The notes under the pieces were generated by a model. That model was not told where the DNA came from. It worked only from the letters and a program-made list of their open reading frames with translations, and ran no database searches. From NCBI GenBank assembly GCA_036012755.1, contig DASCPX010000070.1, positions 79,034-143,033 of the forward strand: a DNA stretch of 64,000 nucleotides. The letters run 5' to 3'. Positions 6,499 through 25,984 of the stretch are shown here, one piece after another. The translations under genes and the position numbers were made by a program. This stretch comes from Myxococcota bacterium (GTDB taxonomy: Bacteria; Myxococcota_A; UBA796; CAJQPC01). The stretch's first letter is position 1; the number at the start of each line of letters is the position of its first letter.

Positions 6499-7725
6499 GT
6501 GATCCCCACCCATGTCGTCACCGGCTTCCTGGGCGCAGGAAAGACGACCTTCCTCTTGGACCAGGTCCGTCGTAGGCCCGAGCGCTGCGCCGTCGTCGTC
6601 AACGACTTCGGCGAGGCCCGCATCGACGCAGGCGACTTCAGCGGCGAGGTCCCGGTCATCGACATCCCCGGTGGCTGTGTCTGTTGCACCGCGCCGGAGA
6701 ACCTCGTGCCCTCGCTGCGGCTGTTGATCCAACAGGCGCGACCCGACCGGATCTTCATCGAGGCCACCGGGCTGGCGCGCCCCGCGGACATCGTCGACAC
6801 GCTCGCCCGGAGTGATCTCGACCTGTCCCTGGCGCCGGTGATCTGCGTGGTCGATCCTCGCCGCGTGGACCCCTCTCGCCCCCTGCTCATGGAGCAGATC
6901 GACGCCTCGGACATCGTGCTCGCCAACCACGCGGGCGACTGCACCGAAGGGGACTTCACCGCGTTGGAGAACGCGCTCCAGGGGCGCTACCCGCCGATCC
7001 TCGCCGTGGAGCGCTGCGATCGAGGTGTCGTCGACCTCGACGTGCTCGAGCGGCGTCCAGAGGTCCTGTTCATGCGCGGCGCATCGGGGGCAGCGGCGTC
7101 GACCAGCGGCTATGTCGCCGCGAGCCGCGTGTGGCCTGCCGACAAGCTCTTCGACAGGGAGAGGTTGGTCGCCACCCTGCGCGAGTCCGACGCCGAGCGC
7201 GTCAAGGGCCTGTTCCGCACGGACCTTGGTTGGTTCCGCGTCGACCGCGCTGGCGGCGAGGTCCACGTCCTGGAGAGCCCTCTGCGCAGCGCCTCCGCTG
7301 TCGACGTCATCGCGGAGCGGGGGGCCGAGGAGCTGGTCGACCTGCTCGATCAGCTCGACGCCGTCGTGCTCGACGACGAAGAGGGCATCCGCCTCGGCGA
7401 GCACGTCTTGAACCGCTGGGCGCTGGCGGCCCTGCCCGGGCAGGTAGATGACGTCGGGGTCCTCGTGCCTGGAAAGGAGGGTCGCGGGGTGCGCTTGGTC
7501 GAGGTCCTCGATCTGGCCGACGGCGAGCACTTCATAGTCGTGGCCAGCGACGGGATGACCACGCAGCCGGTGCCCGTCGCGGCCGCCGGAGTCGCCGTCC
7601 TGGTCCACAGCCTGTCGGGGGACCTGCCGCTGCCAGAGGACCTCGGCGGGCCCTTCCGATTGCTCGCGCCGAAGGGCGGGACCTGCTCCAACGTGAAAGG
7701 CGTCGTACGCATCGAGGTCCTATGA
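6499..7725 (+). CDS. COG0523/CobW-family G3E GTPase with an extra C-terminal domain
   Basis: P-loop GFLGAGKTT, metal-binding GGCVCC and a CobW_C-like region. An additional ~115 aa follows (aa 293-408, …GGPFRLLAP…NVKGVVRIEVL). Confidence 0.85.
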   Translation: MIPTHVVTGFLGAGKTTFLLDQVRRRPERCAVVVNDFGEARIDAGDFSGEVPVIDIPGGCVCCTAPENLVPSLRLLIQQARPDRIFIEATGLARPADIVDTLARSDLDLSLAPVICVVDPRRVDPSRPLLMEQIDASDIVLANHAGDCTEGDFTALENALQGRYPPILAVERCDRGVVDLDVLERRPEVLFMRGASGAAASTSGYVAASRVWPADKLFDRERLVATLRESDAERVKGLFRTDLGWFRVDRAGGEVHVLESPLRSASAVDVIAERGAEELVDLLDQLDAVVLDDEEGIRLGEHVLNRWALAALPGQVDDVGVLVPGKEGRGVRLVEVLDLADGEHFIVVASDGMTTQPVPVAAAGVAVLVHSLSGDLPLPEDLGGPFRLLAPKGGTCSNVKGVVRIEVL

Positions 7726-9091: not shown

Positions 9092-10462
9092 TCACTCCGC
9101 CAGGAGCTCCTCGGCGGCCTCGTGCATCTCCTCCACCTGGGGGAACAGGATCTCCTCCAGCGAGCCCTCGAAAGCCGCCGTCGAGCTCAGGGTCGTGTAG
9201 GGCTCCTGCTCCTCCAGCGCGTAGGGCTCGACCAGGTCGTGGTAGCGGGTCATGCGCTGTCTTTGTGTCTCGAGCTCGAAGGGCGTCTCGACCATCTCCG
9301 CCATGTGCTCCAGGTAGCGCTCGCGGTAGACCGGGTCGTCTGCCAGGTAGCGGATCAGGGGCCAGTCGTCGTCCACCTCGTCCATGCCCAGGGTCAGGGG
9401 CGCTGCGTGGCCCTCCCAGCCGTAGCTCATGTTGAAGTCCCAGGGGATCCACACCAGCCGGCCGTCCTCTTCGGGGTCGCCGTAGAGGTAGTAGTTGTGG
9501 GACATGTTGCCGTAGCTGTCCCAGTTCTCCAGCAGGTTGTTCAGGGCCAGGTAGCGCAGGAAGGCGTCGACCTCGAAGGTGGCCTCGAGCCCCTCTCTCC
9601 AGGCCTCGGCGTCGCTGCGGTCGGCGTTGAGGGCATCCACGAAGGCCTCGACGTCGCCGAAGTCGTCCTCGGCCTCGTTGGTCTTCTTCTCGAAGCCGGT
9701 CGCGTCGAACTCCATCAGCTGGGCGGGACCCCCCTCGGGCTTGTAGGCGTTGCCGCTGTCGCCTCCGAACCAGTCGTCCAGCATCTCCCCCGCGGGGTCC
9801 TCGAAGGCGGTGTAGAGCCCCCAGAAGACCGGCCCGTCCCCGACATCGACGTAGACGCGCATGAAGCCACCCCGTGCCGCGGGCACGCCCGCATCTCGGA
9901 AGGTCTCCGCGGTCGCCTTGTCCCGGATCAGGCTGTCGTCCTTGAATCCGCTGGAGAACTTCAGGACCTTGAAGCCCCAGAAGCGCTGGTCCTCGATCTC
10001 CGGGATGTCGTCCTCGAACTGGTCGAACTCCAGGCGGAAGGGCAGCTTGCCGGAGCCCTCCATGTAAGCCTGCATCAGGCTGGAGTTCCCCTTGAAGCGC
10101 ATGCCCACGCTCGGCCAGGTGCGGTCGTCGAAGGAGACGTCGACCGGCACGTAGACCGGGTCAGCCAGCGCTTCTGGCGGCTCGCCCCCGGGTCCTCCTC
10201 CTCCCGGCCCGCCTCCTCCGGGTCCTCCGTCCATGTCCCCGTAGAGCGCATCGAGGTCATCCACCATGACCTGCCACCTCGCATCGCAGATGCTGATGTC
10301 GAGGCGAGGCACGGCATCCTCTGGCAAGACGAGGTCGGCCTGGCCGTCGACCCCCTTGGCGTGAGAGGTCTCGGACCAGCCGACGGCTTCCATGCTCGTG
10401 CAGTCGTCGTCGGAGTTGGTGGTGGTTTCAGGGCTGCAGGCGAGTACAAGGTAGAGAAGCAA
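9092..10462 (-). CDS. CotH kinase-family lipoprotein
   Basis: N-terminus MLLYLVLAC. CotH-type core WDSYGNMSHNYYLYGDPEEDGRLVWIPWDFN. Contains a Gly/Pro linker GGPGGGGPGGGGPGG. Confidence 0.85.
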   Translation of the reverse strand: MLLYLVLACSPETTTNSDDDCTSMEAVGWSETSHAKGVDGQADLVLPEDAVPRLDISICDARWQVMVDDLDALYGDMDGGPGGGGPGGGGPGGEPPEALADPVYVPVDVSFDDRTWPSVGMRFKGNSSLMQAYMEGSGKLPFRLEFDQFEDDIPEIEDQRFWGFKVLKFSSGFKDDSLIRDKATAETFRDAGVPAARGGFMRVYVDVGDGPVFWGLYTAFEDPAGEMLDDWFGGDSGNAYKPEGGPAQLMEFDATGFEKKTNEAEDDFGDVEAFVDALNADRSDAEAWREGLEATFEVDAFLRYLALNNLLENWDSYGNMSHNYYLYGDPEEDGRLVWIPWDFNMSYGWEGHAAPLTLGMDEVDDDWPLIRYLADDPVYRERYLEHMAEMVETPFELETQRQRMTRYHDLVEPYALEEQEPYTTLSSTAAFEGSLEEILFPQVEEMHEAAEELLAE

Positions 10463-10529
10463 CGCGCACTCGTGACAGGGGTCACCAGGTAAACGCAGCA
10501 GGGCGGAAAACCTGTGCCGGATACTCCTA

Positions 10530-12200
10530 TTACTTCAGCGCCTCCTCCGCGTAGGCCTCCAGCTGGCTCCAGTCCCCGGTCCAGGTCGTGTACATCATCC
10601 CGGCGAGCTCGATCCCGGCGGCCTCCTCCTTTTCCGAGGCCGCGGAGGCCGCGCCGTCGCCGCTGTCGTAGAAGCCGGCGATGACCTGGTCGTGGCCGAG
10701 GCCGTCGAAGTGGGCCAGGGACTCCGGGCTGTGGAGCCAGTTCACCAGCAGCACGTCCTGCTCCAGCCCCTCCCAGCTCCCGGAGATGTCTCCGTCGACG
10801 AGGTAGTAGTCGTCGTGGGCGTTGTGGTTGGGGTCGAACATGTCCGACCAGACCAACAGCCGGGACCCCGGCCGCGCGGTCTCCACCGCGGCCTGGATCG
10901 AGACCATGTGGTCGGCCAGGAGTTCGCCGGCGCTCTGGCCAGTTCCGGCGCAGGCCCCGCAGGTGTTCATGTGGCGCATCTCGTCGTGCATCGAGAACAC
11001 CGCCGGGGCCTCCGGGAAGCGCTCCGCGACCGCAGCGAGGTTGTCCGCCACCCAGGTGTGGACCGCGGGCTCGGTCAGGCAGGCGCCGACCTGGTAGCCG
11101 TAGACCGGCGCGACCGCGTAGTAGTCGAGTTCGACACGGTCTCCGACCGACAAGGAGCTCCCCTCCGGCACCGTGATCACGACCGGCTCGTGCCACTCGT
11201 CGAAGGTGCCGTCGTCCCTCAGTCGCGTGTCGACGAGGTCGTCGAGGTCCACCCCCTCGATCAGCTCGCGGCCATCCGAGCGGGCGTCGATGGGAGCCCC
11301 GTCCCGGCGGATCAGGTTCACCGGGGCGGTCTCGGTCACGCTCACGTCGTCGAACCACGCAGTGCCCGAGTGGTTGCCCCAGACGCCCAGGTAGAGCGAG
11401 ACGGTCTGCGCCTCTGCCGTGTTGACCGTGATGTCGTAGCGGGTCCAGTCCTGGGTCGAGGACATCTCCCAGGTGGTGCTGTTCAGCGAGCGCCCGGCGT
11501 CGGTGTCGTAGAGCATCACGTTGAACCAGTCCGCCGAGAAGTCCTGGGTCTTCAGGCGGAACGAGACGTGGAGCTGGCGGTGGGGCTCGACGTCCAGGGT
11601 CTGGACCAGGCGGGCGTTGTCCGAGCCCTCCTCGACACGGGCCGCGCCGTCGTCCGCGCTGACTCCGTCGTCCCACCAGGTCCAGCCGGCGAGGCCCGAG
11701 CTGAAGTCGCCGCCGGGCAGGGACACCTCGGAGTCCACCTCGAGCACCCCGGCGCTGCCCACGACGAAGGGCTGGGCGACCACCGCCTGGCCCTCCGCGA
11801 GGTTGGCGTCGCTTCGCAGGATGCCCTCGCTGTAGCCGAAGGGCAGCACCGCGGGGATGGCCACCATGCCGTGCTCCTCGATCCGCGCGAGCAGCGCGGC
11901 GAGGTGCTCGTCGTAGGTCTCGTCCAGGGCGCCGGTGTGCAGCAGGTGGACCTTGAAGTCCGCCACCACGACCCCGGTGTAGCCAGCGGCTGCGGCCCTA
12001 TCGACGATGGACAGGGCCTCGTCGAGGTTCTCGTCCACGAGGAGGTTGTGGCGCAGGTAGATCCAGAGCTGGAAGCCCTCTGGCCAGTCGGCCTCCGGAG
12101 GCTCGCTCTCGAGAGGCTCGCTCTCCGAGACGAGTCGGCTGTCGTCTTGGGGCTCGGGGGTGCTCGAGGGAGAAGGGCAGGCGAGCAAGGCGAAGAGCAT
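10530..12200 (-). CDS. lipoprotein, TIM-barrel hydrolase-like with an inserted CBM4/9-like carbohydrate-binding module (tentative)
   Basis: Real start taken as ATG 12200 (MLFALLAC). The 106-aa upstream extension in the track is Arg/Ser-rich junk. The central segment GGDFSSGLAGWTWW…GTAWFDDVSVTE resembles CBM4/9 jelly-roll modules. Confidence 0.65.
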   Translation of the reverse strand: MLFALLACPSPSSTPEPQDDSRLVSESEPLESEPPEADWPEGFQLWIYLRHNLLVDENLDEALSIVDRAAAAGYTGVVVADFKVHLLHTGALDETYDEHLAALLARIEEHGMVAIPAVLPFGYSEGILRSDANLAEGQAVVAQPFVVGSAGVLEVDSEVSLPGGDFSSGLAGWTWWDDGVSADDGAARVEEGSDNARLVQTLDVEPHRQLHVSFRLKTQDFSADWFNVMLYDTDAGRSLNSTTWEMSSTQDWTRYDITVNTAEAQTVSLYLGVWGNHSGTAWFDDVSVTETAPVNLIRRDGAPIDARSDGRELIEGVDLDDLVDTRLRDDGTFDEWHEPVVITVPEGSSLSVGDRVELDYYAVAPVYGYQVGACLTEPAVHTWVADNLAAVAERFPEAPAVFSMHDEMRHMNTCGACAGTGQSAGELLADHMVSIQAAVETARPGSRLLVWSDMFDPNHNAHDDYYLVDGDISGSWEGLEQDVLLVNWLHSPESLAHFDGLGHDQVIAGFYDSGDGAASAASEKEEAAGIELAGMMYTTWTGDWSQLEAYAEEALK

Positions 12201-17269: not shown

Positions 17270-18259
17270 ATGTCGACACCGCCTCTCCATCACTGGTCGG
17301 AACTGGCCGGACTGCCATGGCGGCCGCTGTCCGGCGGCTTGATCAACAACACCTGGGTCGTCGGGGTTCCTCCTGTCGCGGTCGTGCAGGAGCTCAACCC
17401 GATCTTCCCGCCCCGCGTGAACGAGGACATAGAGGCCGTCACCGCTCACGTCGCCTCGCGGGGCATGTGCACGCCGCGGCTGCTCACAACGGTCGGAGGC
17501 GAGCTCTGCTCGGGTCGGTGGCGGGCCCTGAGCTTCGTGCCCGGGCAGACCTTCGACAAGCTCTCCGAGCCGCGCGTGGCGGCCGCTGCCGGCGCCCTGG
17601 TCGCCCGCTGGCACCGGGCCACCAGCGACCTCGAGCACGACTTCGCCTTCTCTCGGCCCCTGGCCCATCACACGCCTCACCACATGACCGTGCTGGAGAG
17701 CGCCCTGGACGAGCATCGGACACACCGGCTCAGGGGTGACGTCGCCGGGCTCGCAGAGGGCATCCTGGGGGGCTGGCGGAGCTGGCAGGGCGACCTCGAC
17801 GAGCCGACCCGCGTGGCCCACGGGGACCTCAAGGTCAGCAACCTGCGCTTCGACGAGGAGGGCGGCGGCGTCTGCCTGCTCGACCTGGACACGATGGGGC
17901 AGCTGCCGCTGTCGGTGGAGCTAGGGGACGCCTGGCGCAGCTGGTGCAACCCCGCCGCAGAGGACGTCCTGGACGCCCAGTTCTCCCTCCCGCTCTTCGA
18001 GGCCAGCGCCAGGGCCTACCTCGACGTCCACCCACTCTCCGCCGAGCAGCGCGAGCGCCTCCCCGCCGGCATCGAGCGCATCTGCCTGGAGCTCGCCGCC
18101 CGCTTCGCCGCCGACGCCTTGAACGAGACCTACTTCGGCTGGAGCGCCGAGGTCGCCCCCACCAGGGGCGAGCACAACCTCCTCCGTGCCCGAGGTCAGC
18201 TCAGCCTTGCCCGCTCGGTCCGCCGCGAGCGCGCCTCGATCGACTCGCTCATCGCCTGA
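17270..18259 (+). CDS. aminoglycoside/choline-kinase-like phosphotransferase family protein
   Basis: Brenner motif HGDLKVSNLRF followed by LLDLDT (Mg-binding Asp). Confidence 0.75.
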   Translation: MSTPPLHHWSELAGLPWRPLSGGLINNTWVVGVPPVAVVQELNPIFPPRVNEDIEAVTAHVASRGMCTPRLLTTVGGELCSGRWRALSFVPGQTFDKLSEPRVAAAAGALVARWHRATSDLEHDFAFSRPLAHHTPHHMTVLESALDEHRTHRLRGDVAGLAEGILGGWRSWQGDLDEPTRVAHGDLKVSNLRFDEEGGGVCLLDLDTMGQLPLSVELGDAWRSWCNPAAEDVLDAQFSLPLFEASARAYLDVHPLSAEQRERLPAGIERICLELAARFAADALNETYFGWSAEVAPTRGEHNLLRARGQLSLARSVRRERASIDSLIA

Positions 18260-19166
18260 GCAGGGCGACGACCTTGCCGAGCACCCCGCCCTCGAGGGCC
18301 GTGTGGGCCTCGGACAGGTCCTCGAAGACCCCTCCGACGTGAGCCCTCAACCGTCCCGCCCGGACCTCCTCCCACATGGCCTGGAGGTCCTCGCGGGTCC
18401 CCATCGTCGAGCCGATGAGCTCCTGCTGCTTGAAGAAGAGCACGCGCAGATCGATCTCCACCGTCGCGCCGGTGGTGGCGCCGCAGGTCACGAGCCGTCC
18501 TCTCCAGTCCAGGGCGCGCAGGCTGCGTGGCCAGGTCGCGGCGCCGACGTGCTCGATCACCACGTCGCTCCTCGGGAAGCGCTCGGCGTCGGAGTCGAGG
18601 ACCGTGTCGGCGCCGAGCTCGAGGCAGAGCTCGCGCTTGGCCGGGCTCCGGGCCGTCGCCACCACGTGGCACCCGGCGTTGTGAGCGATCTGGACGGCGA
18701 AGTGCCCGACGCCGCTGGTCCCCCCGATGACGAGGACTCGCTCACCCTGCTGGATCCTGGCCTTTCGCAGCATCTGCCAGGCCGTGAGCGCTGACAGGGC
18801 GATGGGCGCCGCGTCCACGGTCGAGAGCCCCTCGGGGATGGGCAGCAGGCTCTCCTCGGGCACTGAAACGAGCTCGCGGTACCAGCCGTCGATGGACTCC
18901 CCGCGGATGTGGCCGTCGAGGGTCTGGGGGGCCAGGGCGACCCGCTGACCGGTGTCGACGACGACCCCGGCTGCGTCCGAGCCGGGTACCAGCGGCAGGG
19001 GGAAGCGATGGCCCGGGACCCCTCGGCGGACCCAGAGATCCAGGTGGTTGAGACCCACCGCCTCGACGCGCACGAGCACTTCGCCCTCGGCCGGATCCGG
19101 GGCCTTCACCTGCTCCTCGATCAGGGCCTCGGTGCCCCCGTGTTCGTGGACGCGGATCTGACGCAT
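18249..19166 (-). CDS. zinc-type alcohol dehydrogenase / quinone oxidoreductase (MDR superfamily)
   Basis: ATG 19166 (MRQIRVHEHGG…). GSDAAG and the Rossmann motif VLVIGGTSGVGHFAVQIA. Only the last 305 aa of the 735-aa track ORF are real. Confidence 0.85.
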   Translation of the reverse strand: MRQIRVHEHGGTEALIEEQVKAPDPAEGEVLVRVEAVGLNHLDLWVRRGVPGHRFPLPLVPGSDAAGVVVDTGQRVALAPQTLDGHIRGESIDGWYRELVSVPEESLLPIPEGLSTVDAAPIALSALTAWQMLRKARIQQGERVLVIGGTSGVGHFAVQIAHNAGCHVVATARSPAKRELCLELGADTVLDSDAERFPRSDVVIEHVGAATWPRSLRALDWRGRLVTCGATTGATVEIDLRVLFFKQQELIGSTMGTREDLQAMWEEVRAGRLRAHVGGVFEDLSEAHTALEGGVLGKVVALLRR

Positions 19167-19180
19167 AGGGGGTCTCCAGG

Positions 19181-20105
19181 GTGTACAAACCGCGCGTGTT
19201 GCTCCTATCCCTCGCGCTGGCCTCGCCCCACACGGAGCAGCTCGTCGTCCCGCCTCGCGTGGGGGAGCGCGTGCCCCCCGGGCCGCCGCCCGAGGTCTGG
19301 GTCTACGGCTACTGGGCGTTCTGGGCCGGGGATCTGGAGGACATCGACTGGTCCCGGCTCCACACCCTCTATCGACTGGCGCGGCGCCTACGACTACGAC
19401 GAGCTGGCTTTCGCCTCCGACGGTCTGTTCATCATGGGCTACGGCTACCACTCGTCGGGGTCCAACCCGGGGCCGCTGTCTCCTCTCCACGGCGGGGACC
19501 CCTGGTCGCGCTACAGCCTCGAGTGGACCGTCGAGGACTACATCAAGTGGGGCTGTCCTCCGGACAAGATCATCGTCGGTCTCCCGCTGTATGGCCGCGA
19601 GTGGCCCACCACGGACAACTCCGTCCCTGGCACCGCCACCGCGGACAGCAGCTCGGTGACCTTCTCGAAGGCCTGGACCTACGCCGAGAGCAACGAGACC
19701 TTCTACGACACGGTCACCGACACGCCCTACATGTTCCGCAGCTCCACCTCGCAGCTCTGGTACGACGACACCGACAGCATCGGGGTCAAGATCGCCTGGG
19801 CGGTGGAGACGGAGCTCCTCGGCGTCGGCTTCTGGGCCCTGAACTACGATGGCGGCGATCCGGACTTCTGGCAGATGGTGTCTGACCAGACGACCTCTGA
19901 TGAGCCGGTCGACACGGGCTCGCTGGATTCCGGCACCGACTCGGCCTCCGACTCGGACGCGCGCCCCGGGCGAGGCTCGTCCTGGGGGGACGAGGACACC
20001 CCGCGCGCCTGCGGCTGCGACGGCAGCGGTGGTCTCGGCGCGGCCTGGGTCCTGACACTGATCCTCGTGTCCCGGTCCAGGCGCAGGGCTCCTGACGACA
20101 GTTAG
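19181..20105 (+). pseudogene. GH18-like (chitinase-fold) gene with a MYXO-CTERM-like tail, disrupted by a frame change near 19343-19379
   Basis: The signal peptide and the GH18 N-terminal motif (VWVYGYWAFW…DIDWSRLHTL) are in the 19181 frame. The remainder (…YDYDELAFASDGLFIMGYGYH…LPLYGREW…GVGFWALNYD… then CGCDGSGG-TM-RRR) is in the 18909 frame. No DxxDxDxE catalytic motif occurs in either frame. Confidence 0.6.
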
Positions 20106-20127
20106 TGATTCCGACCCCTTGGCCAGA

Positions 20128-20143
20128 TGGCACAATGCTTGCT
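20128..20143 (+). promoter_or_regulatory. sigma-54 (-24/-12) promoter
   Basis: TGGCACAATGCTTGCT is an exact match to TGGCAC-N5-TTGCW. GGAGG at 20156-20160 and ATG at 20167 follow at the appropriate distance. Confidence 0.7.
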
Positions 20144-20166
20144 GCAGGGCTGTGACGGAGGCCTGA

Positions 20167-20958
20167 ATGTCCGTCTTGTTGTTCCTCTCGCCTGCACACG
20201 CCGACGCCGACGCCATGGAGCCGGAGTGCAGTCTCGTCACCGTCACCGACACACTTCCCGGCCCAGAGGCCGTGGGTGTGCCCCTCGATGTGTCCCCGGC
20301 CGCTCTCTTCTGGGGTGACTGCGACGGTCCAGACCAGTGGACCCTCGAGATCACAGAGGACGGCGAGGTCGTTGCCAGCGACGTCTTCGACTTCGACTGG
20401 TCCGGGCGCCCCCAGCAGATGCGCCTCCACCTGGACGTCGAGCTCGCCCCCGACACCGACTACGAGCTCCGCGTCGTCCCCGGCGAGGGTGGCTACTCCG
20501 AGCCCGCGACCGTCGGCTTCACCACGGGCACAGAGCTCTCCGGTGGCCTCAGCGGCGACCCGCTCATCACAGAGGCCGAGGCCTGGTTCTACGACTTCGA
20601 CACCTCCGTCGAGGTCGGTGGGTCGTTCACGGTCTCCCCTGCCATCGACGCCGATGGGCTCTCACTGCTCCACTTCGTCGACGAGGACGGCGAGATCCTC
20701 CAGACCCGCGTTGTCGGTGATGGAGAGGTCGAGTTCACCGCCCAGACCACCTGGGCGACCTCTGCACCCACAGAGGACATCTGCTACTCCGTCTTCCAGG
20801 AGGACGCCGCGGGGCTGGCCTCGGCGGTGGAGACGGTCTGCGTCGGCGCCGACGAGCGCTTCGTCGAGGAAGACAGGCGCGGCTGCTCCACCGGTGGCCT
20901 CGCCCCCACGGCGCTCTTCGGTCTCATCGGTCTCCTCGGACTGCGGAGGCGGCGATGA
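20167..20958 (+). CDS. secreted Ig-like-domain protein with MYXO-CTERM tag (paralog 1 of 4)
   Basis: Short signal MSVLLFLSPAHA. An SbsA/Big_5-like segment …PGPEAVGVPLDVSPAALFWGDC…. C-terminus GCSTGGLAPTALFGLIGLLGLRRRR. Confidence 0.75.
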   Translation: MSVLLFLSPAHADADAMEPECSLVTVTDTLPGPEAVGVPLDVSPAALFWGDCDGPDQWTLEITEDGEVVASDVFDFDWSGRPQQMRLHLDVELAPDTDYELRVVPGEGGYSEPATVGFTTGTELSGGLSGDPLITEAEAWFYDFDTSVEVGGSFTVSPAIDADGLSLLHFVDEDGEILQTRVVGDGEVEFTAQTTWATSAPTEDICYSVFQEDAAGLASAVETVCVGADERFVEEDRRGCSTGGLAPTALFGLIGLLGLRRRR

Positions 20959-21677
20959 CGCTCGCGCTCATCGCGGTGGCCTCCGCGGACATGGAGATCC
21001 AGATCTGCGAGGGCCCCCGGGTCATCGCCAGCATCCCCCGGCACGGGGACGTCGAGGTCCCCGTCGACCTCGCCCCCGTGCTGGTCTTCGACTACTGCGA
21101 CGCCAGCCAGACCGCCACGGTCCGTCTCTACGAGGATGACCTGATGGTGCTGGAGGAGGACATCTCGGAGGACGGTCTCACGACCATCTTCGAGCTGGAC
21201 TGGGAGCAGTCGGCGGGCAGCAGCTACCACGTCCGCGTGACCCCCAGCGACGGCGGCGAAGAGGTCATCATCGACTGGCTCGTCGGTGAGGAGCTGCTCG
21301 TCGAGAGCGACATCGGTCCGACGATCAGCAGCGTCGACGAAGACAGAAGCGGCAGGATCGGCACGCTCTACGCCTACGTGGACCCGGGCCCCCAGCCGAA
21401 CGAGCTGCCAGCCATCTTCGAACTCCGCGACGACGACGGCGAGGTGCTCGACCGCACCTGGCGGTGGGACGCCGGCTCCTCGGTCACCCTCTGGGGCGCC
21501 TTCTCCGGCGAGCAGCGCTTCGACGCCTGCGTGACCGCCTTCCAGCGCAGCCCCGACGGCGCCTGGCTCGAGGGGGACACCCACTGCGAGTCGAAGGTCG
21601 GCTGCTCCACCGCCGGTGGTGTCGCCTCTCTCTTCGCGGTCCTGCTCAGCCTGCTCGGACTCAGGAGGCGCAAGTGA
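20955..21677 (+). CDS. secreted Ig-like-domain protein with MYXO-CTERM tag (paralog 2 of 4)
   Basis: ATGA overlap with paralog 1. Same layout. C-terminus VGCSTAGGVASLFAVLLSLLGLRRRK. Confidence 0.75.
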   Translation: MTLALIAVASADMEIQICEGPRVIASIPRHGDVEVPVDLAPVLVFDYCDASQTATVRLYEDDLMVLEEDISEDGLTTIFELDWEQSAGSSYHVRVTPSDGGEEVIIDWLVGEELLVESDIGPTISSVDEDRSGRIGTLYAYVDPGPQPNELPAIFELRDDDGEVLDRTWRWDAGSSVTLWGAFSGEQRFDACVTAFQRSPDGAWLEGDTHCESKVGCSTAGGVASLFAVLLSLLGLRRRK

Positions 21678-22423
21678 TCCACCTCCTGATGCTCTCGTCT
21701 GCCCACCCCTACGTCGCCGGTGACATGGCTCCGGCGTGCACCTTCGACCGCGTCACGGCGACCCTGCCTGCTGCGGAGGAGCTCGACGTCGCCACGGACA
21801 TCGTGCCGACCTTCTTCCTCTCCGACTGCGGTGCTGTGAGCTCTACGGGCACTGCCAGCGTCTACGTCGACGACGAGCTCGTTCACGAGCAGTCCGTCGA
21901 GGACATCGGCGGCGTCTACAGCTTCATCGAGGTCGACGTCCTCCTCGAGCCGGACACGGACTACGAGATCTGGCTCGCACCCGACGGTGGAGGCGAGGAC
22001 ACGCTGCTGAGCTTCAGCACGGGGTCGCGCTCCGCCGAACTCGGCGCCGGCGCCCCGGTCGTGGATGACGGTGTCGACTGGGAGTGGTACCGCAAGTCCA
22101 AGGTGGCGAGCTTCTTCCTGGAGTTCGACGCAGCGGTCGATCCGGAGGGTGTCAGCTACGTCGAGGCCATCGGACCCGACGACGAGATCTGGGGCACGGT
22201 GCTCGTGCTCGGCGAGGGCCCCCACTACCTCAGCGGTGATGTCGCCCAGGAGTCCCGGCCACGGGATGTCTGCTTGACCCTGTCCCACCGCCAGGCCGAT
22301 GGGTCCTTCGTCGAGGGAGACACCGTCTGCGAGGATGGCCGGGTCGGCTGTTCGACTGGGGCCCTTGGTGCGGCGCTGATGCCGGCGCTGTTCGGCCTCC
22401 TGATGCTGCGGAGGCGTAGATGA
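21674..22423 (+). CDS. secreted Ig-like-domain protein with MYXO-CTERM tag (paralog 3 of 4)
   Basis: GTGA overlap, with in-frame GTG at 21674 preceded by AGGAGG. VIHLLMLSSAHP… C-terminus VGCSTGALGAALMPALFGLLMLRRRR. Confidence 0.72.
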   Translation: MIHLLMLSSAHPYVAGDMAPACTFDRVTATLPAAEELDVATDIVPTFFLSDCGAVSSTGTASVYVDDELVHEQSVEDIGGVYSFIEVDVLLEPDTDYEIWLAPDGGGEDTLLSFSTGSRSAELGAGAPVVDDGVDWEWYRKSKVASFFLEFDAAVDPEGVSYVEAIGPDDEIWGTVLVLGEGPHYLSGDVAQESRPRDVCLTLSHRQADGSFVEGDTVCEDGRVGCSTGALGAALMPALFGLLMLRRRR

Positions 22424-23163
22424 TCTGGATGAGCCTGGCGCTGGCGGACCCTGCCGCGGACACCGGGATCGGCTGCTCCTCGGACTCGCTGTATGCCACG
22501 AGCCCGCACAACGACTCCAGCGACGTGCCCGTCGATCTGCTGCCGACCATCTTCTTCTCCGACTGTCCGGGTGTCGGCGCCAGCGGCCTCGTAGAGGTCC
22601 ATGTCGACGACGAGCTGGTCCACACAGAGGTCGTCGCTCACGACGGCGAGGGCGACTATTCCTGGGTGGCCCTCGGCCTGGAGCTGGAGGCGGAGACGTC
22701 CTACGTGCTGGTCTACACCCCGGAGGATGGCGGCCAGGAGACGCAGATCGGCTGGACCACCGGGACGCGCTCGGCGAGCCTGCTGTCCCGCGCACCGGAG
22801 CACGAAGAGCCCGTCGAGTGGGGCTGGAACCGCGGCACGGAGAGCGGCAACGTGGTCGTCCACGCCGACGCCGCCGGCAGCTCGGAGGGGCCGACCTTCA
22901 TCGAGGCTCGGGACTCGGAGGGAGAGCTCTGGGGCAACGCGGCACTCGCTGGCAGCCACAACGGCACGCTCTACGCCCGAGCCGCCGGCGAGCGTCCAGC
23001 GGACGTCTGCCTGACCTTGTGGCAGCGGGACGTCGAGGGGAGCTGGCTCGAGGGCGGCACGGACTGCCTCGACGGCAAGGCCGGCGGTTGCTCCACCGGG
23101 GGCCTCGCCGCAGGACTGCTTCCGGCTATCCTGGGGCTGATCGGGCTCCGGAGACGCAGATGA
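22420..23163 (+). CDS. secreted Ig-like-domain protein with MYXO-CTERM tag (paralog 4 of 4)
   Basis: ATGA overlap. Shares VDDELVH and FxSDC blocks with paralog 3. C-terminus GGCSTGGLAAGLLPAILGLIGLRRRR. Confidence 0.75.
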   Translation: MIWMSLALADPAADTGIGCSSDSLYATSPHNDSSDVPVDLLPTIFFSDCPGVGASGLVEVHVDDELVHTEVVAHDGEGDYSWVALGLELEAETSYVLVYTPEDGGQETQIGWTTGTRSASLLSRAPEHEEPVEWGWNRGTESGNVVVHADAAGSSEGPTFIEARDSEGELWGNAALAGSHNGTLYARAAGERPADVCLTLWQRDVEGSWLEGGTDCLDGKAGGCSTGGLAAGLLPAILGLIGLRRRR

Positions 23164-25097
23164 TCCTGCTCGGGCTGCTCGGCTGTCCGGAGCCCGAACC
23201 CATCGAGGGCTGGGATGACGGCCCATGCCTGGAGGCGGCCGAGGAGCTCGGCAAGCTGCCCTGCGTGCACAACGTGCCCGACCTCGATCACTGGGTGGAG
23301 ATCACGGTCTCCGCGCAGGCGGTGGACCAGACCCGGGCGACCAAGTGGATGATCCCGGCCGACCAGGACGGGATCCCGCCCCTGGTGCTGAACTCGAACG
23401 AGTACGAGCTCCACTCCGACATGCTCGCGGAGGCCTTCGCCGACCGCTACCCGGGGCTTCAGCACGCGGACTACGTGCGCATGGTGCTGGACGACCCGCC
23501 TCGGTACTACTCGGGGAACCTGGCCCACTACATCCAGCCCGGCGGCGCTCGCGTCTTCGGCTTCACCGTCTGGGACGACCCGGCGGACGACTCCACCACC
23601 ATCACCCTGGACGAGGCCCAGCTGGTCTACCAGGAGCTCCTGGAGATGGTGTCGCTGCGACCGCTGTTGTTCGTGCCGTCCTCTTCGAACCAGCGGACCG
23701 CCGTCGAGGGATGGGGCGACGCCATCCCGGTGCGCTCGGTCGATGGCGTCACCTACGAGCCCTACACCCGCGGCTGGGGCTACGGCACGCTCACCCTGGT
23801 GGACCTGGAGGACCTCGAGGATGCCGAGTACGGCTTCCAGGACATCCTCGTGCTCGACGAGGCCCCCCTCGACATAGAGCGCGTCGTCAGCGGTGTCGTC
23901 ACCGGGACTCGCCAGGCGGAGCTCTCCCACCTCAACGTGCGATCCGCCGCTCGTGGCACCCCGAACTGCTACCTCGCCGGCGCCCAGGACCAGCTCCGGG
24001 CCTGGGAGGGCCAGCTCGTCCAGTTCTGCTGTGGGGCCGACGGCATCGAGATCCGCACGGCGACCCAGGACGAAGCAGAGGCGTGGTGGGAGTCCATTCG
24101 CCCCGAGCCCGTCGAGATCGTGGAGCCGGACTTCTCGGTCGAGGACCTCGTCGGGCTCCTCGACCTCCCGACCTCCTCGGCGACCGAGCGCGAAGCTGGC
24201 GTCGCCGCATACGGCAGCAAGGGCACGAACCTGGCCACGCTCTACCAGCGCATCGACGCCGAACTCCAGCTGGAGGGTCTCCTGGTTCCGATGTCTGCCT
24301 ACCAGGCACACCTGGACGACAACGGCATCGGGATCGGAGGTGACCTCGAAGATCTGCGGGCAGCGATCGAGCAGGCGCCGAAGGACCCCGAGCTCGTCCT
24401 GGATCTCTACGACGCGATCTTGGAGGTCTACGGCGACGACACGACCATGGTGCGGTTCCGGTCATCGTCGAACGCAGAGGACGCCGTCGGTTTCTCTGGC
24501 GCGGGCCTCTACGACTCGGAGAGCGTCTGCGCCGCGGACAGCTTCGACGGCGACGACCTCGGCCCATCCCTCTGTGATCCGGATCAGGATGAGGAGAGGA
24601 CCATCGAAGCTGGCCTCGGGAGTGTCTGGGCCAGCCTCTGGACCGAGCGGGCAGTCGAGGAGCGCGCCTGGTACGGCATCGACGACGACGACGTCGCCAT
24701 GGCCATCCTCGTGAACACTCGCAGCGAGGATGAGCAGGCCAACATCGTCGCGTTCACGGGAATCCCCGGATACTCGAGTGATGACCGGTACATGGTCGAG
24801 TCCCAGATCGGTGAGCTCGACGTCGTCTCGAACCGCTCTGGCACCTGGCCCGAGCGAGTGCTGCTGCAGCTCGATGGGGGCGAGGTCGTGGACATCGACC
24901 GGGTGTCAGCCTCCACCGAGGTCGATGTCGTCCTGGAAGACGCCGCGCTCGAGGAGCTGGGGTCGAACCTCTGGGACATCGAGCAGATCTTCCCGGTCGA
25001 TGGCTCGGCCGAAGGCAGGGTGCTGCTCGACACGGAGTGGAAGGTGCTCGCGGATGGGCAGCTGGTCGTGAAGCAGGTGCGGCCCTTCCTGGACTGA
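23160..25097 (+). CDS. lipoprotein with PEP-utilising-enzyme swivel (phospho-His) domain followed by a PPDK_N-type ATP-grasp nucleotide-binding domain
   Basis: ATGA-coupled ATG 23160 (MILLGLLGC). Swivel-like ILVLDEAPLDIERVVSGVVTGTRQAELSHLNVRSAARGTPN. PPDK_N-like YGSKGTNLATL, VRFRSSSNAEDAVGFSGAGLYDS and WASLWTERA. Confidence 0.75.
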   Translation: MILLGLLGCPEPEPIEGWDDGPCLEAAEELGKLPCVHNVPDLDHWVEITVSAQAVDQTRATKWMIPADQDGIPPLVLNSNEYELHSDMLAEAFADRYPGLQHADYVRMVLDDPPRYYSGNLAHYIQPGGARVFGFTVWDDPADDSTTITLDEAQLVYQELLEMVSLRPLLFVPSSSNQRTAVEGWGDAIPVRSVDGVTYEPYTRGWGYGTLTLVDLEDLEDAEYGFQDILVLDEAPLDIERVVSGVVTGTRQAELSHLNVRSAARGTPNCYLAGAQDQLRAWEGQLVQFCCGADGIEIRTATQDEAEAWWESIRPEPVEIVEPDFSVEDLVGLLDLPTSSATEREAGVAAYGSKGTNLATLYQRIDAELQLEGLLVPMSAYQAHLDDNGIGIGGDLEDLRAAIEQAPKDPELVLDLYDAILEVYGDDTTMVRFRSSSNAEDAVGFSGAGLYDSESVCAADSFDGDDLGPSLCDPDQDEERTIEAGLGSVWASLWTERAVEERAWYGIDDDDVAMAILVNTRSEDEQANIVAFTGIPGYSSDDRYMVESQIGELDVVSNRSGTWPERVLLQLDGGEVVDIDRVSASTEVDVVLEDAALEELGSNLWDIEQIFPVDGSAEGRVLLDTEWKVLADGQLVVKQVRPFLD

Positions 25098-25108
25098 GTC
25101 CCACACCC

Positions 25109-25135
25109 CATCGAGGCGAATTCGCAGCTTCGATG
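25109..25135 (+). terminator. candidate intrinsic terminator hairpin after the sigma-54 operon
   Basis: CATCGA-G-GCG-AATT-CGC-AGCT-TCGATG sits 12 nt after the stop. There is no T-tract. Confidence 0.35.
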
Positions 25136-25206
25136 CCGATCCCTCCGGATTGCGCGCTGGCGAGGAACGTGCGAAAACGCGCCTGGAAATCCACCCGGAG
25201 CCCAAC

Positions 25207-25581
25207 ATGCGCCTTGCCGCCGCCCTCTTCCTCGTCCCGCTCGTTGCTTGCGGGACCGCCGAGACCCCTCCCGAGCCGCCTGCGCCGACAGTTGAGCCAG
25301 CCCCGCCAGCGGAGGAGGCCCAGCCTGCGGAGGCAGCCGAGCCCGCCGAAGCAGAAGCGGCGGCAAGCTACTCCTGCGCGATGCACCCCGAGGTGACCTC
25401 TGCCGAGGCAGGGGCGTGCTCGGAGTGCGGAATGGACCTCGTCGCGGTCGAGCCCGCCGAAGAGGCTGAGGGAGAGGCTGAGGGAGAGGCCGAGCCCGCC
25501 GAGGAGGCTGCCGAGGAGGCTGCCGAGGAGGCTGCCGAGGAGGCTGCCGAGGAGCCCGCAGCAGAGCCCGAAGGGACCTGA
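25207..25581 (+). CDS. small lipoprotein with a heavy-metal-binding domain (YxCxMHP…CxxCGM) and an acidic Ala/Glu repeat tail
   Basis: ATG 25207 (MRLAAALFLVPLVAC). The motif YSCAMHPEVTSAEAGACSECGMDLV. Tail AEEA x4. Confidence 0.75.
   Translation: MRLAAALFLVPLVACGTAETPPEPPAPTVEPAPPAEEAQPAEAAEPAEAEAAASYSCAMHPEVTSAEAGACSECGMDLVAVEPAEEAEGEAEGEAEPAEEAAEEAAEEAAEEAAEEPAAEPEGT
25498..25554 (+). repeat. 12-bp in-frame tandem repeat GCCGAGGAGGCT x ~4.75 (AEEA)n
   Basis: Read directly from the sequence. It lies inside the HMBD lipoprotein CDS. Confidence 0.9.
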
Positions 25582-25606
25582 GAGCTGTAGTCCGCGCCTT
25601 CGCCGG

Positions 25607-25625
25607 CACCCGAGCAGATCGGGTG
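25607..25625. terminator. candidate bidirectional terminator hairpin between convergent genes
   Basis: CACCCGA-GCAGA-TCGGGTG, a 7-bp perfect stem with a 5-nt loop. No T-tract. Confidence 0.35.
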
Positions 25626-25648
25626 CGCGGCGGAGCTGACTCTGCTGG

Positions 25649-25984
25649 TCAGCCCGTCACGGACAGGGCCATGAGCCGCACCTGGGCCATGCGGGCCTCC
25701 TGGACCCAAGCCGGTGTGAGCGCCCGTCCTTCCCAGCGCTCGAGCACCTGGGCGAGGCGTGTGATGACCCCGATGCGAAGCTCCTGCACGGGACCACGCT
25801 CCAAGACGGGACTGCCCACCTGCCAGAGCTTGTAGCGCCCCGGGTCCTCTGTCGGGCGGGGGTCGATGAGCCAGCGCGTACCCTCGTCGGGGAGGATCTC
25901 GATGATGCGACCATCGGCGATGGAGTGGCCGACATGCCCAAGGTCCTTGGCAGCCACCGCGTCCAGGGCGGTGCTCAGACTCAC
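25649..25984 (-). CDS. hypothetical 111-aa protein, third gene of the toxin-like operon
   Basis: In-frame GTG 25984 forms a GTGA overlap with the stop of the 241-aa ORF. The sequence downstream of that start is protein-like (…RYKLWQVGSPVLERGPVQELRIGVITRLAQVLERWEG…). The upstream part of the track ORF is Arg-rich junk. Confidence 0.5.
   Translation of the reverse strand: MSLSTALDAVAAKDLGHVGHSIADGRIIEILPDEGTRWLIDPRPTEDPGRYKLWQVGSPVLERGPVQELRIGVITRLAQVLERWEGRALTPAWVQEARMAQVRLMALSVTG

Follow-up and report, generated by a model that had tools for sequence, protein, structure and literature searches.

Transcription from sigma-54 (RpoN) promoters depends on an activator, the enhancer-binding protein (EBP), for which the usual distance of the binding site is about -90, and the C of the GC dinucleotide in these promoters lies at -12. 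Among the sites of such activators, that of NtrC reads TGCACC-N5-GGTGCA and that of NifA TGT-N10-ACA. The sigma-54 promoter consensus itself is TGGCAC-N5-TTGCW (PMC9765219, PMC12316311). Myxococcota carry rpoN together with many EBPs, rpoN is essential in M. xanthus, and cell-envelope and surface functions are enriched among the predicted sigma-54 targets of the Myxococcia (PMC12316311). For the most part, the sigma-54 promoters characterised in M. xanthus show one to several departures from the consensus; 9 of 12 are found within coding sequence, some of them far from the gene, and the half-sites of Nla28 are tandem 8-bp sequences of the form CT(C/G)CG(C/G)AG (PMC9765219). MYXO-CTERM surface proteins, of which TraA is the prototype, are sorted by the myxosortase MrtX (PMC11980579). 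No paper mentioning MYXO-CTERM together with sigma-54 was found in the literature searched.

The DNA analysed here, referred to as the window, is a 64-kb stretch from a member of the Myxococcota. The original prediction, made from the letters of this stretch, had placed a sigma-54 promoter directly before an array of MYXO-CTERM genes:

20128 to 20143, plus strand: sigma-54 type -24/-12 element TGGCACAATGCTTGCT, with GG at 20129-20130 and GC at 20141-20142

All 11 specified positions of TGGCAC-N5-TTGCW are matched at this place, as had been claimed, and the GG (-24) and GC (-12) are spaced by exactly 10 nt. The element lies inside a 61-nt intergenic gap and is co-oriented with the gene that follows (gene A). 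When both strands of the window were searched, it was the only perfect match to the consensus, with 0.03 perfect matches expected per window and one found in 3 of 100 dinucleotide shuffles. Matches with one mismatch were absent from the 64 kb and for up to two mismatches the count was 9, where 17 were expected; the claim that the element has no equal elsewhere therefore holds for the whole window. Neither sigma-70-type matches nor terminator-like sites were found in 18800-26100.

Downstream of the element, five genes follow one another on the same strand:

20167 to 20958, plus strand: array gene A, 263 aa, with a short signal peptide, two FN3/Ig-like beta-sandwich domains, and GCSTGG, a hydrophobic helix and RRRR at its end
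20955 to 21677, plus strand: array gene B, 240 aa, a paralog of A whose start overlaps the stop of A (ATGA)
21674 to 22423, plus strand: array gene C, 249 aa, with a GTG start at 21674 after AGGAGG, overlapping the stop of B
22420 to 23163, plus strand: array gene D, 247 aa, overlapping the stop of C
23160 to 25097, plus strand: gene E, encoding a 645-aa lipoprotein-like protein (MILLGLLGC...) with a C-terminal PPDK_N ATP-grasp domain, overlapping the stop of D

From A to E, the stop of each gene is overlapped by the start of the next, which speaks for one operon of five genes, and the gene order of the array recurs in the related locus L033. The ATG of gene A had been placed correctly at 20167, and its frame offers no earlier start. 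The 249-aa call for gene C is also found in the population contigs L027-L030; these near-identical contigs were not informative for conservation because they are identical in the promoter region.

The paralogs A-D share 27-30% identity, very short signal peptides and conserved cysteines, and all four, as well as their homologs, end in GCS(T/A), a hydrophobic stretch and RRR(R/K). An AlphaFold model of protein A (pLDDT 83) shows two beta-sandwich domains, the best fold matches of which are tandem FN3/Ig modules. With the NCBIfam model TIGR03382 (GC_trans_RRR), only protein B passes, at 19.0 bits for a cut-off of 15.85; with TIGR03901, A and B score 16.9-17.6, below the cut-off of 20, and C and D gave no match to either model. 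A Pfam scan of the array proteins returned no covering family; the homolog in L002 is named a MYXO-CTERM protein by NCBI. In an exhaustive search, the array family comprised 327 cluster representatives at E <= 1e-10, with no name and no Pfam model. Protein E is matched by PF01326 at 8.1e-15 and by PEP synthase (8a8e) at 1.9e-12, and homologs of E are found after the array in L001, L002, L003, L005, L033, L037 and L041.

Several further observations concern these two protein families. Array paralogs number from 1 to at least 8 per lineage at ~25-35% identity (L031, L032, L035 and L041 compared with the window, L033, L037 and L001); expansion and divergence are rapid in this family. The array proteins and E (window 20167-23200; E starts of L011, L012 and L026) have unusually short signal peptides devoid of a charged N-region, the AxA site or lipobox Cys being preceded by only 6-12 residues (MILLGLLGC and MLLLLIAC are examples). 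E and its homologs (L001-L026) have lipobox-type N-termini yet carry the PPDK_N ATP-grasp nucleotide-binding domain; outside the cytoplasm, a fold that uses ATP is unexpected. For many E homologs, neither the array nor the sigma-54 motif is present. At one such E-only locus (L024, 3187-5844), genes for an ABC ATPase and for a fused ABC-2 permease/CPBP-like protein precede E, CPBP being the protease family of myxosortase. The match TGGCGCTGTTGTTGCT at this locus was considered as a promoter of E and rejected, as it sits inside the ABC-2/CPBP gene.

Upstream of the array, two features can be placed:

18249 to 19166, minus strand: zinc-type alcohol dehydrogenase, diverging from the GH18 gene
19181 to 20105, plus strand: GH18 pseudogene with a MYXO-CTERM-like Cys / hydrophobic / Arg-rich tail, of which Pfam covers only profile positions 157-317

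That the GH18 gene is disrupted had already been suspected from the window itself, and alignment to the intact orthologs of L031 and L033 (415 and 425 aa, respectively) bears this out: a 338-nt deletion at 19353/19354 shifts the frame and removes the catalytic-motif region (residues corresponding to 62-175, HGVSVDCEG among them). Independent assemblies of this population carry the truncated gene as well, which rules out an assembly error. On either side of the junction stands a ..(I/V)DW.. codon stretch (EDIDW|RGAYDYDEL), and this points to a deletion between short repeats. A MYXO-CTERM-like tail is also present in the intact GH18 orthologs. On the other side of the operon, 110 nt after E, there is a small lipoprotein gene (25207-25581, plus strand) with a CxMHPxV...CxxCGM metal-binding-like motif; its 12-nt tandem repeat at 25498-25554 (4.8 copies) encodes (AEEA)n, and its product varies in length between strains (124 and 116 aa). 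A CotH kinase-family protein (PF08757, 6e-54; 9092-10534, minus strand) and a 1408-aa protein with only a weak eCIS_core match (26699-30925, minus strand) have no evident link to the operon.

Between the -24/-12 element and gene A, the following can be placed:

20153 to 20156, plus strand: predicted transcription start, at about 20154 when the C of GC (20142) is taken as -12
20157 to 20161, plus strand: Shine-Dalgarno sequence GGAGG, read from the sequence, 5 nt before the ATG at 20167

The predicted start falls within the interval of 20153-20156 expected at the outset, whereas the GGAGG had been given as 20156-20160 and needs moving by one base. The predicted leader would be 13 nt long (GACGGAGGCCTGA) and the Shine-Dalgarno sequence would take up its positions +4 to +8; so short a leader counts against the promoter reading. 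L031, L033 and L035 have the block CGGAGGCC without any change.

Related loci were gathered from Myxococcota MAGs and metagenomes by searches with E, and closer relatives were added with a profile of the array proteins. Every distinct lineage in which the first array gene is in view (10 of 10) has a -24/-12 element, with no more than one mismatch, 21-42 nt before the ATG, as listed here with the gap from the end of the motif to the ATG:

window: TGGCACAATGCTTGCT, 23 nt to the ATG at 20167
L031/L032: TGGCATAGTGCTTGCT, 23 nt
L033: TGGCACAATGCTTGCT, 21 nt
L035: TGGCACACTGCTTGCT, 22 nt
L001: TGGCATCACCATTGCA, 27 nt
L002: TGGCCCATGGTTTGCA, 29 nt
L003/L039: TGGCACAGACCTTGCT, 42 nt
L005: TGGCACGGGACTTGCT, 30 nt
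L037/L038: TGGCACGGCCCTTGCT, 28 nt
L041: TGGCCCGGCTCTTGCT, 31 nt

Over the window and the first 26 loci (628 kb of strand-bases), 13 matches with at most one mismatch were counted, 6 of them at the position before the array, and the background rate of such elements is ~1e-5 per strand-base. The six-gene array of L041 has only one long gap, and this gap holds a second element, with two mismatches, 32 nt upstream of the fourth gene. The element is also retained before E in L006 (TGGCACCACCATTGCA), although the array there has been reduced to a 19-codon remnant. The upstream neighbours of L006 are on the opposite strand, as is the nearest upstream gene of L001 (~0.9 kb away), and a promoter is therefore required upstream of the array or of the E gene in these two loci. 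Most E-only loci are without a sigma-54 motif, and L004 and L019 have only candidates with two mismatches, which was counted against the promoter reading.

Two of these loci deserve a separate remark. In L006 (1695-1800), the array gene has been lost; a remnant ORF (MIVATTQALLSSLSGRFRC) begins 27 nt after the sigma-54 element, and the promoter now stands directly before the E gene. In L003 (6768-6783; also L039, 1416-1431), a second perfect sigma-54 consensus (TGGCACGACCCTTGCT) is found 50 nt before the gene of a 90-aa Cys-rich lipoprotein (6834-7106) and 433 nt upstream of the array promoter. This second consensus does not have the ATGTCGYGATC element upstream, and the small lipoprotein has no homolog in the window.

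Conservation was resolved further by comparing the three syntenic relatives of the window (L031, L033 and L035), the A proteins of which are 57-63% identical. Over the GH18 linker and tail, the three-way DNA identity amounts to 0.17-0.43; it climbs to 0.63-0.87 over 20104-20163 and drops to 0.13-0.5 in the signal-peptide codons that directly follow the ATG (~20164-20221). Among the distant lineages, the consensus positions (TGGCAY, TTGCW and the 5-nt spacer) and the Shine-Dalgarno sequence alone are common, whereas the spacer bases and the flanks differ. Since ten diverged lineages of the Myxococcota all have this element directly ahead of their first array gene, 20128-20143 is almost certainly a working sigma-54 promoter, as far as comparison of sequences can tell. 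The claim that such a promoter serves the unit 20167-25097 is likewise supported, by the recurrence in all ten lineages, by the stop-start overlaps and by the gene order shared with L033.

The original prediction had further placed an enhancer inside the disrupted GH18 gene, where TCCTGAC occurs twice. A first motif search for exact k-mers, with one mismatch allowed, in nine upstream regions found nothing above shuffles. An EM-type de novo search was then run over -160 to -12 relative to the -24 box in one representative of each of seven lineages, and it returned a conserved element, CC(C/A)ATGTCG(Y)GATC (consensus CCCATGTCGYGATC), with starts clustered 50-73 nt upstream of TGGCAC. Its leave-one-out score of 89.3 is significant against both null models used, 20 shuffles (57.8 +/- 4.3, maximum 69.8) and 60 sets of real segments drawn at random from these records (67.9 +/- 5.2, maximum 81.2). 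The element is often the right arm of a dyad, TCGYGACA-N4-TGTCRCGA. This dyad is a perfect 8+8 in L003 (TCGCGACA-N4-TGTCGCGA at 7120-7139, the element being the right arm), where a third half-site, TCGTGACATG, follows 28 nt after TGTC; 6/8 dyads were recognised by eye in L002 and L005. The corresponding features of the window, together with a box nearer the promoter, are as follows:

20064 to 20077, plus strand: CTCGTGTCCCGGTC, the window copy of CCCATGTCGYGATC and a candidate activator site, about 85-90 nt before the predicted start
20043 to 20058 and 20067 to 20082, no strand assigned: imperfect inverted repeat GCCTGGGTCCTGACAC / GTGTCCCGGTCCAGGC, 75% complementary, with 8 nt between the arms
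20090 to 20101, plus strand: second TCCTGAC with GACAG, possibly a weak third half-site
20106 to 20122, plus strand: box TGATTCCGACCCCTTGG, after the stop of GH18 and before the -24 element, also conserved in L031, L033 and L035

The left arm of the inverted repeat holds the first TCCTGAC, its inner bases read GACAC ... GTGTC, and the whole repeat (20043-20082) is analogous to the perfect dyad of L003, with the GACA of the second TCCTGAC copy 29 nt after the TGTC at 20068. The two heptamers are present as described (20050-20056 and 20090-20096). As evidence, their repetition was rejected: of 130-nt windows taken at random from this sequence, 64% contain an exact 7-mer repeat 10-100 nt apart, and the matching alignment columns of L031 and L035 do not keep the copies. 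What stands of the predicted enhancer is thus its place in the GH18 remnant, where the conserved element at 20064-20077 lies between the two TCCTGAC copies; what falls is the repeat itself, which is at chance level. The heptamers may be degenerate half-sites of a real element, centred ~90 nt before the predicted start.

The alternative that survives best accepts the promoter and places the activator elsewhere than 20043-20101, either further upstream, at the box 20106-20122 or acting from solution, and we regard it as unlikely though by no means negligible. It draws on the weakness of the window copy, which scores 9.2 with the PWM (background 5e-4 per position, or ~0.08 expected per 150 nt) and is the most degenerate of all, matching 10 of 14 consensus positions; this was counted against the assignment, as were the null result of the cruder k-mer search and the chance level of the heptamers. 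The spacer of the window dyad is also 6 nt longer than in the other lineages and sits in former GH18-tail coding sequence, and in the window group the box 20106-20122 is the better conserved of the two. Against this, a PWM trained without the window group has its best window match precisely at 20064-20077, and the offset is 63-64 nt in all four members of the group (the window, L031, L033 and L035; background 1e-4 to 6e-4 per position) and 62-63 nt in L001, L005 and L037. The duplicated promoter inside the L041 array has its own copy of the element (TCGATGTCGCGGTC, at 51 nt), and a centre at about -90 is the usual distance of an EBP site. The element at 20064-20077 within the dyad 20043-20082 is the likeliest place for the activator to bind, and it is the best enhancer candidate in the window.

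The box at 20106-20122 bears more directly on a second alternative, in which the conserved block serves some other role, such as a repressor site, the site of an activator of sigma-70-type transcription, or a signal for translation or processing of an RNA spanning GH18 and the array, and its likeness to a sigma-54 promoter is a coincidence. Close relatives do conserve the whole block from 20106 to the ATG, beyond the -24/-12 positions, and this box has no assigned role. A similar TGATYTCA...CTTG is found at the same 21-nt offset in L001 and L006 and is absent from L002, L003 and L005. A reading of the box as an IHF site was tried and rejected, as the L006 copy (CAAAGGCCTGATT) fits the reverse IHF consensus and the window copy does not. 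Distant lineages, in contrast, keep exactly the sigma-54 consensus positions while all else changes, and L001, L002, L003, L005, L006, L037 and L041 have a different or a divergently oriented gene upstream, so that read-through RNA from GH18 is not the common factor. Folding of 20100-20175 likewise gave no unusual RNA structure (z = +1.07). We therefore consider a role other than that of a sigma-54 promoter improbable.

The last alternative, a chance match without function before an array that is transcribed from another promoter (for instance by read-through from GH18, which is possible as no terminator was found between GH18 and gene A), has in its favour the 3 shuffled windows in 100 with a perfect match but is effectively refuted by conservation and has next to no probability left, given the position in a 61-nt intergenic gap in the correct orientation, a background of only ~1e-5 per strand-base and the recurrence at this place, in nine further diverged lineages with unrelated flanks, of an element with no more than one mismatch. 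The same comparative pattern leads us to reject the GH18 read-through signal.

Searches were also carried out for the proteins that a sigma-54 promoter would call for. The EBP signatures GAFTGA and ESELFGH were not found in a six-frame search of the window and 42 loci (417 kb), and a Pfam scan of the ten window ORFs of 440-675 aa gave no Sigma54_activat domain, these ORFs having other assignments or none. Neither did the window or these 417 kb of related loci yield an rpoN gene. The genes for the EBP and for RpoN must therefore lie in another part of the genome. Sigma-54 is expected in this uncultured lineage from what is known of the phylum (PMC12316311).

The account favoured here is that of a sigma-54 promoter activated from the dyad. 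Sigma-54 RNA polymerase would bind the GG at -24 and the GC at -12 of 20128-20143 and wait as a closed complex, which an EBP bound upstream would open with the use of ATP. The predicted activator site would be 20064-20077 in the dyad 20043-20082, inside the 3' end of the dead GH18 gene, and the activator itself would be encoded at an unlinked place in the genome. Transcription would then proceed from about 20154 and give one mRNA with a 13-nt leader that covers 20167-25097 and encodes four translationally coupled FN3-like proteins of the MYXO-CTERM type and the PPDK_N lipoprotein. Judged on the sequence comparisons, we put the probability of this account as a whole at roughly 0.88.

A wider proposal is more speculative, and we hold it doubtful as a whole. 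It is that the locus represents an undescribed cassette of uncultured, apparently largely marine Myxococcota, in which a dedicated, unlinked EBP acting at TCGYGACA-N4-TGTCRCGA switches on an expandable array of quickly diverging, two-domain FN3-like MYXO-CTERM proteins together with an extracytoplasmic ATP-grasp (PPDK_N) lipoprotein that possibly modifies the array proteins. If this were true, the cassette would be a regulated and variable surface coat. The promoter itself leads to the prediction that the surface-protein arrays stay silent until their specific activator fires. It provides a firm regulatory handle on a sizeable family (327 cluster representatives) that has neither name nor Pfam model, and the candidate activator site could be used to find the activator and its regulon in Myxococcota genomes.

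Compared with described systems, the sigma-54 promoter itself is ordinary, one more case in a phylum already known for its heavy use of sigma-54. As in other sigma-54 promoters, a candidate activator site lies ~90 nt upstream, in a phylum rich in EBPs, and, as in NtrC- and NifA-type activator sequences, this candidate is a short conserved element with dyad symmetry (a perfect 8+8 in L003). The sequence TCGYGACA-N4-TGTCRCGA presumably matches neither the NtrC nor the NifA site. Like the promoters targeted by Nla28 and Nla6 in M. xanthus, the window promoter has GG and GC 10 nt apart and is co-oriented upstream of an operon, whereas it differs from the M. xanthus examples in its perfect consensus, its intergenic position and its predicted leader of ~13 nt to the ATG (PMC9765219). 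Its candidate element resembles EBP sites and the tandem Nla28 half-sites in being centred roughly 90-100 nt before the predicted start, with extra half-site-like copies nearby, and it differs from the Nla28 half-site in its sequence, TCGYGACA-N4-TGTCRCGA, with the arms in the window 6 nt further apart (PMC9765219). The cargo is related to the cell envelope and surface, a class enriched among the predicted sigma-54 targets of the Myxococcia. The array proteins share with other MYXO-CTERM proteins of the Myxococcota the three-part tail of Cys signature (GCSTGG), hydrophobic helix and Arg-rich end (PMC11980579). Unlike the prototype TraA, they are small (~250 aa) two-domain FN3-like proteins, and their genes form tandem arrays, with from 1 to at least 8 copies and a linked gene for a PPDK_N lipoprotein.
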